This document shows positions 459 through 63,667 of a stretch of 64,000 bases of DNA, piece after piece (the stretch's first letter is position 1; each line of letters starts with the position of its first letter). Origin of the DNA: Octopus vulgaris (Eukaryota). The notes beneath the pieces were generated by a model. The model saw only the letters and a list, made by a program, of their open reading frames with translations. It searched no databases and was not told the DNA's origin. Where the stretch lies: contig OX597831.1 in assembly GCA_951406725.2 (NCBI GenBank), positions 78,492,001-78,556,000 on the forward strand, written 5' to 3'. The position numbers and the translations under genes are program-made.

Positions 459-496
459 CTGTCCGACGAACGAGAACATGAAACTCCGAGTAACAG
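459..496 (+). ncRNA. Degenerate minimal type I hammerhead-like motif in a short AT-rich repeat
   Basis: ctgt-CCGACGA-acgagaacat-GAAA-ctccgag-TA-acag. Stem I ctgt/acag and stem III ctc/gag pair; the core has U4>C and stem II is only about 1 bp. Confidence 0.4.
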
Positions 497-664
497 CTTT
501 TGTTGAATTTCTGCTGCTTTTAAATAAAGCATATTACTCTACCTCTGGTATTTGTGTACTCCTTTTTCCACCTTGTTTCACATTTATGTGTTTACTCCGG
601 TATATATATATATATATATATATATATATATATATATATATATATATATATATATATATATCAC

Positions 665-875
665 AACAACAGCACGGAGATGCAGCATAGAATTTTGTTA
701 GTGAACAGGTCGCGGTCTCAAAGCGACGAAAATATTTTGACACAAATTAAGTGAATCTAACGGATTTTGTGTGTTTCTTAAATTGCTTTTAAAAACACCT
801 TCCACGCAGCAATTGTTTTCTTTCCAACACACGATCTCAGATCAGGTCACTTGCTATGCAAGTACACCTCCGTAA
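665..875. mobile_element. Partial copy of the fold-back/MITE-like element at 5745-6062
   Basis: Shares ttagtgaacaggtcgcggtctcaaagcgacgaaaatattttg...cacgatctcagatcaggtca...tatgcaagtaca with 5878-6062. Confidence 0.7.
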
Positions 876-1267
876 TATATATATATATATATAGATCTGA
901 ATACGTGTTGGCATGTGAGTATATATTTATACACTTATTTGTGTGTGTGTGTGTGTGTGTGTGTGTGTGTGTGTGTGTGTGTGTGTGTGTGTGTGTGTGT
1001 GTGTGTGTGGTCACACGTATATGTCACATTCTTTAATGTCAGAGCAGGCTTTTTAAATGGTGAACATGGCTCTAAACTTTGACCTCTGTCTCTGTTCCTA
1101 CCGAAACAGGGTCTTCTAATCGCAGGGATATCGGTGGGATGGGGTGTGGTGAGAGGGTGTGCAAAGATGAGGGGGTGATTAAGGAGAAGGGAGCGGAGAG
1201 GGGGCTTAATGCACAGTAATTTCAACGTTATTATCAACACGAGAACAACATCAACAGCGACAGCTAC

Positions 1268-2055
1268 ATCATGATCATCGCTATCATCATCATCATCATC
1301 ATCATTATCACCATGATCATCATCACTATGATGGTGATGATCATCATCATCATCATCATCACCACCAACATCGCCATCATCATCATCATCATCGTCGTCA
1401 TCATCATCATCATCATCATCATCAACATCATCATCATCATCATCATCATTATCATCGTCGTCGTCATCATCATCATCATCATCATCATTACCATCATCAT
1501 CATCATCATCATCATCATCATCATCATCATCATCATCGTCGTCGTCATCATCATCATCATCATCATCATCATCATCATCATCATCATCATCATCATCATC
1601 ACCTTCATCATCGTCGTCGTCGTCATCATCATCATTATCAACAACTAGGACAGCATCGAATCCTCCGTAAACAATGATGGCGACTACGACGACGACGACG
1701 ACGACAACAACAAGTAGAACCACATCAGCAATGACGGCAACAGCAAGAAAAACGATACTAGCGACAACAACAACGACGACAATAAACATAATAAACAACA
1801 CAAACAATGCCAATAATGATAACAACAACAACAACAACAACGACGACGTCGAAGAGATAAATGTGTGAAAGAATTTATGAATGATGTTTGCATTCCATGG
1901 ACATTTTCCCGTTTGAATTACACATCGGTTGGTGGTGGTGGTCATTATGGTGAGTGATGGTGGCGGTAGTGGTGGTGGTGGTGGTGGTGGTGGTGGTGGT
2001 GGTGCTGCTGCTGCTGCTGCTACGAACGGTAATGATGATGATGATGAGGTGATGA
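1268..2055. repeat. Compound trinucleotide microsatellites (ATC)n/(GTC)n/(AAC)n/(GGT)n/(GCT)n
   Basis: Direct reading; explains the poly-D/I/M/P ORFs, including 935-2119. Confidence 0.95.
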
Positions 2056-2057
2056 AA

Positions 2058-2272
2058 GGCGGCGAGGAACTGGCAGAATGGTTAGCCGTATTTTGTCTGC
2101 CGTTATGTTCTGAGTTCAAGTTCCGCCGAGGTCGACTTTACCTTTCATCCTTTCGGGGTCGATTAAATAAGTACCAGTTACGCACTGGGGTCGATATAAT
2201 CGGCTTAATCCGTTTGTCTGTCCTTGTTTGTCCCCTCTGTGTTTAGCCCCTTGTGGCTAGTAAAAAATAGGT
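2058..2272 (+). mobile_element. tRNA-derived SINE family A (long-tail form)
   Basis: Head ggcggcgag..tggcagaat (A box), gagttcaa (B box), core gtcgacttt(a/g)cctttcatcctttcggggtcga, tail gccccttgtgg..agtaaa; many copies in the window. Confidence 0.9.
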
Positions 2273-2454
2273 AATGATGATGATGAGTTGTGGTGGATTG
2301 GTGGGGGGTGGTATTGTTGCGTGTTGTCGTTTAGGTAACTCTAGTGGTAGTAGTGGTAATGGCAGCGGCGGTGGTTGGATGTGTGGTAGGTAGTGGTGGC
2401 AGTAATAGGGTCATTCTTACCACATTTTCACGACGTCTGTTTTTAATATTATTT

Positions 2455-59969: not shown

Positions 59970-60060
59970 GCGGTACACGTGTTTCAAGCTTTATAAACAA
60001 TCCGTTATTATATCAGTGTATTATTGATATAAAAGATGGTTTAAAGCTCCCTTCAGCCGC
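59970..60060 (-). ncRNA. Type I hammerhead motif with very long stem II and an A9>G change
   Basis: Minus strand: gcgg-CTGAAGG-gagcttta...ttatatca..tgatataa...taaagctt-GAAA-cacgtg-TA-ccgc. Confidence 0.7.
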
Positions 60061-60573
60061 AAACACTGTTGGTCCAAAGAGTTACAACACAATATAAAAA
60101 ATATGAAAAGTACATGTAGTATTACCCATTATAATAGGTTTATCATATCTCCTTGAAAAAGCGTATTTGTAAAATTTCCTAACTGTATAAATGTAAAAAG
60201 ATTCATTGGATTTCGAAAGTCTGCCCATACTGTATCACCAATCAGCATAGAGTATATAATGTATATACATATACATATACATATATATATATATATATAT
60301 ATATATATATATATATATATATATATATATATATATATATATATATATATATTAATAAATTTTAGGGTAGCAAAAAATTCTAGAAAGATTCTCCGCTACC
60401 AGCGGTCAAGTGAGAAAGAAAAAAATAGTCAAAAGACTATATAATATACATTCAAACATATAAGGGACGGCCATAATAGGACATGAGACTCACTAGAAAG
60501 AGCAGCTAAACTCCAAACCACTAATAGTTGTAATTCTGAAATGGAAAGAGAAATAAAAACGTTTACCCTCTCC

Positions 60574-60655
60574 TTTCTGGACTATGCATAGTTTCGGCAA
60601 TCTTTTGTAAATAAAATAAATTTATTTAACACTGGCGTTGCCTCGTCAGTAGAAA
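60574..60655 (-). ncRNA. Type I hammerhead ribozyme within 89-bp inverted repeats
   Basis: Minus strand: tttcta-CTGACGA-ggcaa...ttgcc-GAAA-ctatgcatag-TC-cagaaa. 10-nt palindromic stem III, GUC triplet; first stem I pair mismatched. Confidence 0.85.
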
Positions 60656-60899
60656 AGCCAAGGACAGAATTACAACTATTAGTGGTTTGGAGTTTAGCTG
60701 CTCTTTCTAGTGAGTCGGATGTCCTATTATGGCCATCCGTTATATGTTTGAATATATATATATATATATATATATATATATATATATATATATATATGTG
60801 TGTGTGTGTGTGTGTATATATATATATATATATATATATATAGATAGATAGATAGATAGATAGATAGATAGATAGATAGATAGATAGATAGATAGATAG

Positions 60900-61350
60900 A
60901 TAGTCGAACAAATCGACCCAAAGACTTGTTTTCTATTGGTCTGTTTTGCAGAACCGCTAAGTTACGTGGACCTAAACACACCAACATCGGTCGTCAAGCG
61001 ATAGTGGGAGGGGGACAAACACAGACACACAAATACAGCCATAAGGTTCCGGATTCAGTCCCACTGCGTGGCACAAAGCCTTGTAAGTGGACTTAGTAGA
61101 TGGAGACTGAAAGAAGCTCATTGTATATATATGTGTGTATGTGTGTTTGTGTGTGTGTGTGTGTGTATTTGTGTGTCTGTGTTTGTCGCACTCCCACCAT
61201 CGTTTGACGACCGATGTTAGTTTGTTTACATCCACTTAACTTAGCGGTTCTGCAAAACAACCCGATAGAAGAAAAGTCTTTGGGTCGATTTGTTTGACAA
61301 TAGGTGGTGCTCCAGTATGGTCGCAGTCAGAGGACTGAAACAAGTAAAAG
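60900..61350. mobile_element. SINE C tail (-) followed by a composite SINE B/C (+)
   Basis: gcagaaccgctaagttacg; ttcagtcccactgcgtggca...; gtgctccagtatggtcgcagtc..gactgaaacaagtaaaag. Confidence 0.8.
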
Positions 61351-63632
61351 AATTAAAAAAAGAAAACAAATCGATCAGTAAATATGAAGAAATGTATATT
61401 CGCAACTGAAGAATTTGCTGGAATTGCATCGAAACCATTAAATATTTCCTAAAAGATTTCCTCAAATGATGTAGAATAGTTAAATAGTCGCCTATTAACA
61501 GGAAGAATTTGGTATTCAAGAATGCAACACTGCAAAATTAACGAATCATTGGTCAGTGTTACACTTCGACGCTCCACCAATTCCAGCACTTACCATCTTT
61601 AATTTCTTCCATTCAAGCCAACAGGCAAAGAACTTTTATTAAAGAAGGAGAACAATCGATTTAAACCGACCTTTCCCCCCCTCAAGATTTAAACTTTTAC
61701 TAAATCCATCGACCCCAGGGGGAATATAAAGTAAAGTCGACCTCGACAACATTTGAACCCGATACATTATAGGGTATAATGACCCACCTAAATACAGTAA
61801 AATTTATTTCTCTGTCTACAGCAGAGAACAATGACTTAGTGATTCCTGCCACCACCGCCGTCCTTACCGTGGCCATCTCCACATATGATTTAACATTTCT
61901 AGCTAAGTGGACTAGGGTCATTGAGAGTTAACGGACAGCCAGTGGCATGAGATACGATCCGTTAAACAATTAGTTCGACCATCATATCGATATTTCAACA
62001 AGGTGGACACCAGCTGCGACTGTCGTTCCATTTACGTGTATTTATATAGCTTGTATTTATGCGCATGCGTCAACCTTTATATATATATATGTGTGTGTGT
62101 GTGTCTCAGTGTGCGTGTGTGCATGTGCATCTTGTATATACACATATATTACACATATAGGTACGTACGTTAATAAATTAATATATGTATATATATATAT
62201 ATATATATATATATGTATTTATATATATATATATATATATATATGTGTGTGTGTGTGTATATATATATATATATATATATATATATTTATACGTATATAT
62301 ATATATACGTATAAATATATATAGAACCAGATAGACTCAATACTATATATGTATATACATATATAAACAAATACGCACGCATATATATATATATATACAT
62401 GCATGTGTGTATACATATATGTATATACATGTATATATATATATATATATATATATATATATATATATATATATATATATACACACGCATGTGTATACAT
62501 ATACGCATATACAAACATACATACGTATGTATGTGTGTATGTGTGCAACATATGTGTATATACACATACAGATACATGTGTGCATATTTATGTGTGAGTG
62601 TATGTCCAAGTATACTATCACCACCACCACCACCACCACCACCACCACTACACGCACCCATGCACCTACTCCTATATAAACGAAATGGTTACAATAATAC
62701 AGAGACGCGCAACAAACCGATTGTTATGATGTAACGGTGTAAACCTAAAATTATATGGGTATATATATACTATACACGCATACACATATACATGCATACA
62801 TAGACACAGAGACACAGACACACAGACACACACACACACACACACATATATATATATATATATATAGCGTACGTACATTGTAGGTAACACAAGATATAAA
62901 AAAGACATTACCTGCATCTATATACGTGCGGTTGTGTGTGTGTGTGTTTTGTCTGTGTGTGTGTGTGTGTGTTTGTGTGTGTTAATTATAGTTCATTGGA
63001 TTGCAGGTGACTTAGGTTCTGTCGAGATGTTTGTATGTCATGTTTGTATGTATGTACTTTTGCGTGCATAATTGAACGTACACACACACACACACACACA
63101 CACACACACACACACACACACACACACACACACACACACACACACACACACACACACACACATATATATATATATATATATATATATATATATATATATA
63201 TATATATATATATATATATATATATATATATATATATATATATATATATATATAATATGAATACATATGCGCTGAGGCACAGGAATGCCTCTGTGGTAAG
63301 TAGCTTGCTTACCAACAGCATGGTTCTAGGTTCAGTCCCACTGCGTTGCACCTTGGCAAGTGTCTTTTACTATAGCTTCGGCCCGACCGAATCCTTGTGA
63401 GTGGATTTGGTAGAAACTGAAAGAAACACGTCGCATATATATATATATATATGCCTGTGTGTGTTTGTTAACATTTAGAAGAAATTTTTACAGGGACGTA
63501 TCTTTTGAAAGGACGTAAACATATCAACAACGGTTGTACAGAGGTGCAAGGGGACAAAATGCAGACAAACATATATATGATAGATCGTTAGCCACTTCAC
63601 ACATTTTTTCTCTCCTTGTTTTTTCTGTGTCC

Positions 63633-63667
63633 CTTTCTGTAAAGAGCGTAGGCTCGAAACGTAAAAG
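63633..63667 (+). ncRNA. Degenerate minimal hammerhead-like motif
   Basis: cttt-CTGTAAA-gagc gtag gctc-GAAA-cg-TA-aaag. All three stems are present but the core is non-canonical. The downstream tail is related to 39490-39560(-). Confidence 0.45.

Follow-up and report, generated by a model that had tools for sequence, protein, structure and literature searches.

Hammerhead motifs in a 64-kb stretch of the Octopus vulgaris genome are probably decayed copies from about ten repeat families related to Penelope-like elements

Why should 64,000 nucleotides of Octopus vulgaris DNA (contig OX597831.1, positions 78,492,001 to 78,556,000; G000:C18:78492001-78556000 in our coordinates, here called the window) hold 13 type I hammerhead ribozyme motifs in a host genome of 2.8 Gb, and are these working ribozymes? 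An earlier reading of the sequence alone had proposed that they belong to multiple non-coding repeat families, non-autonomous elements mobilised by the reverse transcriptases (RTs) of Penelope-like elements (PLEs). Our analysis makes it quite probable that the motifs are mostly decayed copies from about ten families, of which two are the 3' ends of protein-coding PLEs of the Hydra clade and the others are likely to be short elements or element ends inserted by the same enzymes. On this view the motifs are dense because the families are many and their copies have built up over a long time, and not because 13 ribozymes are at work.

A type I hammerhead-shaped motif is present at every one of the 13 positions that the sequence-only reading had named. 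The helix III palindromes that it had listed are there as well, namely catg at 4387, cagctg at 40471, cacgtg at 59970, ctatgcatag at 60574, and cg at 57047, 57946 and 63633. The motifs and the elements that carry them are as follows.

1..600, plus strand: 3' untranslated region (UTR) and pseudo-long terminal repeat (pLTR) end of a 5'-truncated, internally deleted, apparent Hydra-clade PLE; (TA)n from 601
452..504, plus strand: type I hammerhead motif (459), U4C core (CCGACGA), extended stem I, predicted cut after 492
4389..4425, minus strand: hammerhead motif (4387), exact core, 3-bp stem I, CATG helix III
6169..6247, plus strand: hammerhead motif (6172), long stem II, decayed stem I; one intact relative (L360) in the 800-kb sample described below
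7333..7830, minus strand: more-than-unit copy of a non-coding candidate retrozyme monomer of about 358 bp; direct repeat 7351-7467 / 7702-7826
7512..7556, minus strand: hammerhead motif of this 358-bp unit, two mismatches in the window copy
10144..10220, plus strand: hammerhead motif, G12A in the window copy; four relatives in the 800 kb, one intact (L014)
40471..40518, plus strand: intact hammerhead motif, CAGCTG helix III; fold-back pieces upstream at 39948-40350
42636..42721, plus strand: intact hammerhead motif, long stem II; family 3' end fixed, 5' ends staggered to about -935
56986..57140, minus strand: inverted shorter arm of a tRNA-headed element; hammerhead motif 57047-57091 with a deletion in stem I
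57141..57218, plus strand: tRNA-like head with box A- and box B-like sequences, then (AAT)n
57895..58075, plus strand: hammerhead-bearing tail; motif 57945-57990, stem I damaged
59241..59315, minus strand: near-intact hammerhead motif, 7-bp stem I, one helix III mismatch; small inverted arm
59968..60062, minus strand: hammerhead motif (59970), A9G in the window copy; 3' end of a second Hydra-type PLE family
60351..60803, minus strand: two-armed insertion of a non-coding unit of about 455 bp; motif 60572-60657 with a 10-nt palindrome; inverted arm 60665-60803
63562..63781, plus strand: short abundant repeat; motif 63633-63667, G8 deleted in the window copy; (TA)n follows

The motif set clearly exceeds chance expectation, which was estimated from 100 local dinucleotide shuffles per block size at two block sizes. 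The final descriptor demands an exact core and permits one unpaired base at the foot of stem II; it supersedes a first version, which allowed no bulge or mismatch at the base of stem II and gave a single window motif. With a stem I of at least 4 bp it finds two window motifs (40471 and 42636) against a shuffle mean of 0.10 (maximum 1), with at least 3 bp it finds three against 0.17-0.22, and with no demand on stem I it finds 12 against 1.3-1.5 (maximum 7). Nine of these 12 are among the 13 motifs already named, and the other three, at 8714, 13239 and 57470, look like chance matches. The remaining named motifs either carry core damage in the window copy (10144, 59970) or belong to families with variant cores (459, 63633). 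In all, 11 of the 13 window copies fail the strict descriptor and most are damaged as judged from their sequence; stem I is broken at 6172, 57047 and 57946, and 7512, 59241 and 60574 show single mismatches. An Rfam search of the window, which is rich in microsatellites and fragments of long interspersed nuclear elements (LINEs), returned no match at gathering score, and microsatellite-driven miRNA matches fill the best 150 of the 556 entries ranked by E-value. Six further candidate remnants (17660, 19380, 4630, 20050, 5080 and 9930) had no relative with an intact motif and were dropped as hammerheads.

The same excess is seen elsewhere in the genome. A sample of 80 stretches of 10 kb, taken from C1-C21 at round coordinates, contains 28 intact motifs by the strict descriptor, spread over 20 stretches and including seven from a single array, whereas 20 shuffles average 1.45; the comparison with dinucleotide-shuffled controls proposed by the sequence-only reading thus favours real motifs both in the window and in these 800 kb. 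The net density is about 26-33 intact motifs per Mb, which extrapolates, roughly and from C1-C21 only, to 70,000-90,000 intact motifs genome-wide, and the window with its two strict motifs in 64 kb is ordinary for its genome. Two features that lie outside the descriptor's requirements are enriched too: helix III is wholly self-complementary in 18 of 22 real sample matches versus 24 of 79 shuffled ones, and a (TA)5 tract lies within 300 nt downstream in 13 of 22 real matches versus 519 of 3462 random sites (15%).

The 13 motifs reduce to about ten families plus the single-copy motif 4387, because 57047 and 57946 are the two arms of a single insertion and 59241 is a sister subfamily of 60574, about 72% alike. 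Genome searches gave families for 40471, 57946, 459, 59970, 42636, 60574, 63633 and 7512, and for each family only the best 10-30 copies, those nearest to the window copy, were examined. All eight consensuses fold as type I hammerheads, six of them with the canonical core CUGANGA...GAAA...UH, and their stems are unrelated between families. Helix III is exactly self-complementary in six of the eight, contains G-U pairs in 42636 and has one central base in 459. The consensuses repair damage present in the window copies, and intact copies make up 18/30 in family 59970, 14/20 in 60574, 6/10 in 40471, 8/20 in 42636, 3/10 in 7512 and 5/30 in 57946. By comparison of these sequences, most of the non-strict motifs are evidently damaged copies of families with a complete consensus. 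Core substitutions among copies (28/1610, 1.7%) are fewer than those in the flanks (411/14640, 2.8%; p=0.012), and compensatory changes within families, assessed by eye, are few. Motif 4387 had no second copy in the genome search and may be a chance match or a very old copy.

What kind of element do these families represent? They share a fixed 3' end shortly past the predicted cut, their 5' ends are staggered, most of them end at a (TA)n tract, and every one of the eight has loci (from 2/30 to 12/30) at which an inverted arm lies upstream. Fixed 3' ends, staggered 5' ends, (TA)n sites and inverted arms are all insertion traits of endonuclease-bearing (EN+) PLEs (PMC8557442). For families 459 and 59970 the connection is direct, in open reading frames (ORFs) joined to the hammerhead, and for the other families the inverted arms, fixed 3' ends and (TA)n sites support a PLE link. 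No ORF was found in the flanks examined for families other than these two.

Directly upstream of window base 1 lies an ORF remnant (L320:8608-9961) that matches amino acids 188-644 of the family-459 ORF. The longest copies of this family continue into an endonuclease C-terminus, and the 459 segment lies in sense downstream of that C-terminus at 24 of 30 loci; in the window copy stem II is damaged at a CpG. The C-terminal peptide, used as a query, finds many genome copies with frames of up to 735 codons. Locus L307 has two 726-codon frames in tandem that are 99.6% identical, and each pLTR there contains a hammerhead, placed about 170 nt ahead of the frame. Each is a single ORF with RT followed by a C-terminal EN, and its RWK, DKT, CxxC and CRH motifs match the Hydra clade (PMC8557442). 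In the CxCX5C linker the second Cys is replaced in L307, while family 59970 has CxC with a shorter spacing, and Pfam returned no family for the Hydra ORF or its C-terminus. The ORF-bearing young sister of subfamily 459 has a canonical core in 11 of 13 long-ORF loci. In family 59970, a Hydra-type endonuclease lies 2.3-3 kb upstream of the hammerhead and collinear with it in two of the seven longest copies examined, and two hammerheads of the random sample (L029, L355) also have a Hydra-type endonuclease 0.2-0.6 kb upstream. Motifs 459 and 59970 are, on this evidence, the 3' ends of protein-coding Hydra-clade PLEs. Tandem, apparently intact Hydra-clade copies with frames of 726-727 codons occur at L307:1425-8676 (G000:C12:43.65 Mb) and also at L308-L314; such near-identical tandem copies suggest recent activity.

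Other families in the window appear to be non-coding units. Family 7512 has a consensus with a 6-bp helix I and a CCCGGG palindrome, and a period of 357-359 bp at 3 of 10 loci. Its monomer aligns lengthwise with the unit of a tandem array at locus L011 (60% alike, E 6e-15), the only complete tandem array seen, and the family fits a non-LTR (long terminal repeat) retrozyme of the kind described in PMC7229834. The array itself (L011:2097-4790; G000:C1:20002097-20004790) is young and two-armed, with a unit of 354-359 bp, (TA)n on both sides and seven identical intact hammerheads, two on the minus and five on the plus strand. Family 60574 shows a period of 453-457 bp at 3 of 20 loci, and the longest stop-free frame in its 455-bp unit is 62 codons. 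Both units lie within the 150-1000 nt typical of non-LTR retrozyme monomers.

The single, SINE-like insertion that carries 57047 and 57946 has a different layout: a tRNA-like head is followed by (AAT)n and then by a hammerhead tail of 185 nt, with a LINE 3' fragment interrupting the (AAT)n upstream of the tail in the window. The head lies upstream of the tail at 21 of 30 loci. Its presumed box A and box B were picked out by eye; ARAGORN matches the head at a relaxed threshold only, with inconsistent isotypes, and one sister copy of the element had no Rfam tRNA match. The sense-strand consensus is free of TTTT, which occurs in 4 of 30 copies, and would be compatible with transcription by RNA polymerase III (Pol III). 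An inverted arm is found at 14 of 30 loci, ending 26-50 nt short, with a target duplication in 9 of the 14; insertion units of EN+ PLEs have a tail of 30-40 bp at one end. The tail carries both a PLE-type hammerhead and a PLE insertion signature; no partner element was found for it in the loci examined, a search that did not extend to a LINE library. The element shares sampled words with runs (X1-X23) under seven organism codes, and because these words are common to them it probably predates several species splits. One candidate for the source of the tail was a PLE family with a fragment elsewhere in the window:

23591..24349, minus strand: decayed PLE reverse-transcriptase fragment (RVT_1 match), of a family other than the hammerhead-bearing ones

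This PLE occurs with the tail, in sense and after a microsatellite, at 2 of 30 loci. The candidate was set aside because the microsatellite is oriented differently at these two loci and because the remaining 3' ends shown go no further than the microsatellite; co-targeting is likelier. The PLE family, which a linker motif tentatively labels as Neptune-like, has no hammerhead of its own that we could see. Its 3' ends, also at L075 and L095, stop at (ATT)n/(AAT)n, and many of its copies start with an inverted 3' fragment.

The description of the families as multiple and non-coding is therefore borne out in its first part, but 459 and 59970 run upstream into PLE coding sequence. Similarly, the proposed PLE link is supported and 7512, 60574/59241 and 57047/57946 are non-autonomous, but 459 and 59970 are ends of autonomous elements.

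How might such copies arise? A tandem source copy would yield a transcript with two hammerheads that pair through their palindromic helix III. The paired hammerheads would cut slowly and free a unit-length RNA, which may be ligated. The PLE endonuclease would then nick DNA at a (TA)n tract and the reverse transcriptase would start copying at the 3' end, in most cases halting early and often folding back. Every insertion would be left with a single hammerhead, some 40-200 nt before its 3' end, and would decay from then on. It has been reported that minimal PLE hammerheads cleave weakly and as dimers, and it has been proposed that they cut tandem transcripts into units that may circularise and act as templates (PMC4209133, PMC6765202). 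In the window most copies are solitary as well as damaged, and no locus has two intact same-strand hammerheads of one family. Because insertion with 5' truncation and fold-back would leave each arm with one hammerhead, the arms being on opposite strands, the window copies have no same-strand partner and are probably inert.

The consensus folds, the ORF links, the inverted arms, the fixed 3' ends, the (TA)n sites and the unit repeats are direct observations on which this explanation stands. Several points weigh against it. No ORF link was found for families 40471, 42636, 63633, 6172 and 10144, which may be autonomous or non-autonomous, and no autonomous partner was identified for families 7512 and 60574 or for the tRNA-headed element. 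The lower variation of the core than of the flanks is unlike purely neutral decay, although several source lineages or a bias towards top matches fit it as well. The spread of two families whose cores, U4C and A6U, should be weak casts doubt on the cleavage step. Only one of nine Xenopus dimers cleaved in the study of Li et al. 2026 (10.64898/2026.07.22.740005), and Naiad PLEs spread without canonical hammerheads (PMC8557442), which speaks against a need for cleavage. Nor does the explanation account for motif 4387.

The variant cores also speak for another explanation, that the fold is kept mainly as a structural or protein-binding signal, by binding RT or by dimerising the RNA, with cutting slow or dispensable. 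In family 63633, the most abundant one, the core reads CUGUNGA; of 42 copies, 40 have U6 and 40-42 retain the original base at each of the remaining five positions, while N7 can be any base (A 21, U 11, G 6, C 4). In this count 20 of the 42 copies come from top-match loci and the pattern required stem II. With 12 matches in the 800 kb, the family would have about 40,000 copies genome-wide if the sample is extrapolated, and a second, partial copy without the hammerhead part lies in the window at 39435-39560. In subfamily 459, C4 (U4C) is found in 28 of 30 copies. U4 and A6 are invariant in type I hammerheads proper, and both groups are best called hammerhead-like variants. Among the intact motifs of the 800-kb sample there are 12 with a compensated U3-A8 pair (0-4 in shuffles), five with U4C (none in 5 shuffles), three with A6U (none in shuffles; one of the three looks like chance) and one with A6G; U4A, U4G and A6C gave none. 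The five U4C motifs belong to three families besides subfamily 459, a sister subfamily of 40471 (L025, L041, L061) and two others (L057; L361), which suggests that U4C originated several times. At least two multi-copy families of the random sample have the compensated U3-A8 core (L018, L041, L048, L359), a variant already published for PLE hammerheads (PMC4209133).

Changes of A6 or U4 reduce hammerhead activity, and U4C and A6C are described as weakened rare variants (PMC3088659); that families with such cores have multiplied, that Naiad PLEs manage without canonical hammerheads and that the genomic copies run past the predicted cut all fit a fold kept for something other than cutting. On the other hand, the exact catalytic core is kept by six of the eight consensuses and by the youngest ORF-bearing subfamily, the absence of U4A, U4G and A6C beside a recurrent U3-A8 pair is as expected under selection for catalysis, and a viroid hammerhead with U4C is still sufficient in vivo (PMC3088659). 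We regard a mainly structural or protein-binding role as unlikely, though it deserves to be kept in mind.

Decayed copies of about ten PLE-related families also account for the window better than the proposal that all families are non-autonomous retrozymes and that the window loci make small or circular RNAs, which we consider improbable. The unit repeats at 3/10 loci of 7512 and 3/20 loci of 60574 and the seven-motif array at L011 speak for it, and such elements do yield circular RNAs in coral, mussel and axolotl (PMC7229834), but two families are ends of coding elements and no window locus has the same-strand pair of intact hammerheads. Some RNA data, though not decisive, also speak against it. 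In three RNA runs of a related species the tRNA-headed element is covered in both directions, 87-88% of the reads on it continue into unlike sequence, and no pile of read starts or ends is seen, in libraries ill-suited to detect cleavage or circles. Raw reads hardly cover the L011 monomer (40 partial reads); the junction between its units is present in contigs guessed to be RNA and in one run of unknown kind, which tandem DNA also fits.

Co-option of individual motifs by the host as regulatory ribozymes is very improbable: core substitution is slightly below that of the flanks and elements of this sort occur inside host transcripts, but 11 of the 13 window copies fail the strict descriptor and the older families have intact fractions of only 5/30, 8/20 and 3/10. 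That the motifs are merely chance matches of a loose pattern in repeat-rich DNA, as the missing Rfam match, the single-copy 4387 and the many copies that depart from consensus might suggest, is refuted for the motif set by the roughly 20-fold excess over shuffles, the consensuses that repair window damage and the enrichment of independent features, which leaves chance as a candidate for 4387 only.

A few other features of the window deserve mention. An abundant repeat at 20060-20165 on the minus strand, with at least seven relatives in the loci examined, contains a GAAA-CCGG-TC stretch and a TGAAGGA-like stretch; no copy examined holds a full hammerhead, and it may be a more divergent hammerhead variant. 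Decayed LINE fragments, presumably RTE-like, R4/Dong-like and Tx1/L1-like by their motifs, lie at 8330-9480, 15300-15950, 26490-26870, 27900-28360, 30620-32460 and 57370-57630, several of them inside microsatellites. The first part of the window has a second copy 10.6 kb upstream (L151, L152; G000:C18:78481796 and 78492400), with 100% identity over the 201 bases searched and collinearity over more than 2 kb, which is either a recent segmental duplication or an assembly duplicate.

What do these findings mean? Many hammerheads in repeats as such are expected from published surveys, and the role of the hammerhead in endonuclease-bearing PLEs has been described as still unclear (PMC8557442). The octopus offers a comparison set of young tandem canonical Hydra elements, a U4C sister subfamily, an A6U family, a retrozyme array and a tRNA-headed passenger, which side by side bear on whether catalysis, dimer pairing or the fold alone is needed for mobility. 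We speculate, without giving it the better chance, that the hammerhead set of octopus-type genomes is among the largest and most varied in nature (about 100,000 intact motifs), that altered-core families (A6U, U4C, U3-A8) mobilised by PLEs have been copied tens of thousands of times in it, and that one Pol III-type, tRNA-headed short interspersed nuclear element (SINE) rides PLE rather than LINE enzymes. In that case the A6U family would be either a new working core or proof that the motifs are kept for something besides cutting.

The arrangement as a whole is known in kind (Cervera 2014), and the observation is real and ordinary for its host genome. Massive, family-structured sets of minimal hammerheads are well recognized in metazoan PLEs (PMC4209133); a coral has more than 6000 motifs in 16 families and the axolotl 126,247 motifs (PMC7229834), and retrozymes are described as PLE derivatives (10.64898/2026.07.22.740005). 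The supposition that this diversity had not been described in cephalopods needs qualification, since the giant squid has 235 Rfam hammerhead_1 loci (PMC6962438) and an octopus Hydra element, Hydra-1_Obim, is listed with a hammerhead (PMC8557442 supplement), although the supposition stands to the extent that no family-level catalogue was found. In the literature searched, which mostly excludes subscription papers, there was no octopus hammerhead catalogue, PLE-carried tRNA SINE or A6U core, and the covered parts of PMC7229834 and 10.64898/2026.07.22.740005 hold no cephalopod data. The family-wide A6U and U4C cores and the tRNA-headed element are the less familiar parts.

Compared with the PLE hammerheads of Cervera 2014 (PMC4209133), the octopus motifs share the short helix I, the palindromic helix III, a wealth of divergent families within one genome, a majority of lone motifs left by truncated elements, opposite-strand pairs 100-700 bp apart, the U3-A8 variant and, in families 57946 and 63633, an extra base after A9. 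They differ in that several families have a stem II insert of 45-65 nt, a palindrome of 6-10 nt or a 10.1-11.1 mismatch that replaces the bulge, and in family-wide A6U and U4C, which do not appear in the portions of that paper covered. That paper counts motifs in the thousands for each genome (about 9,000 for Xenopus), versus our rough 70,000-90,000, obtained with a different descriptor. Among the core variants of Perreault et al. 2011 (PMC3088659), U3-A8, U4C (in a viroid) and A6C (in a phage, <0.1 per min) are known, and 'A6U' is absent from the text considered. In contrast to the octopus variants, which are fixed in multi-copy families, those variants are rare single cases, and mutant repeat cores were mostly discarded.

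The coding elements agree with the Hydra clade of C-terminal EN+ PLEs (Craig et al. 2021, PMC8557442) in their single ORF, their RWK and DKT motifs, a C-terminal EN with CxxC and CxH, (TA)n targets, a 3'-end hammerhead, and tandem and inverted copies. The differences are the replaced second Cys of CxCX5C, 3' UTRs of about 1 kb and more than 2 kb, and one U4C subfamily. By eye, the record printed just before Hydra-1_Obim in the supplement has the stem I of family 459 and nearly its helix III, while the protein and hammerhead of L307 differ from Hydra-1_Obim and therefore represent a different family.

Like metazoan non-LTR retrozymes (PMC7229834; 10.64898/2026.07.22.740005), the non-coding units are monomers of about 350-450 bp with one type I hammerhead, present as tandem or more-than-unit copies beside PLEs. 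Unlike them, the octopus copies lie in (TA)n with PLE-type inverted arms, and only two or three window families fit. Circular RNA is known from metazoan retrozymes and is only a possibility for the octopus units. Finally, the tRNA-headed element resembles the schistosome Sm-alpha/Sj-alpha SINE-like repeats (PMC6765202), in which a Pol III-type promoter is likewise followed by a hammerhead, but it differs from what is described of them in being dispersed as single or head-to-head copies with no tandem seen, and in its PLE insertion signature, its internal (AAT)n and its minimal hammerhead without a real helix III.

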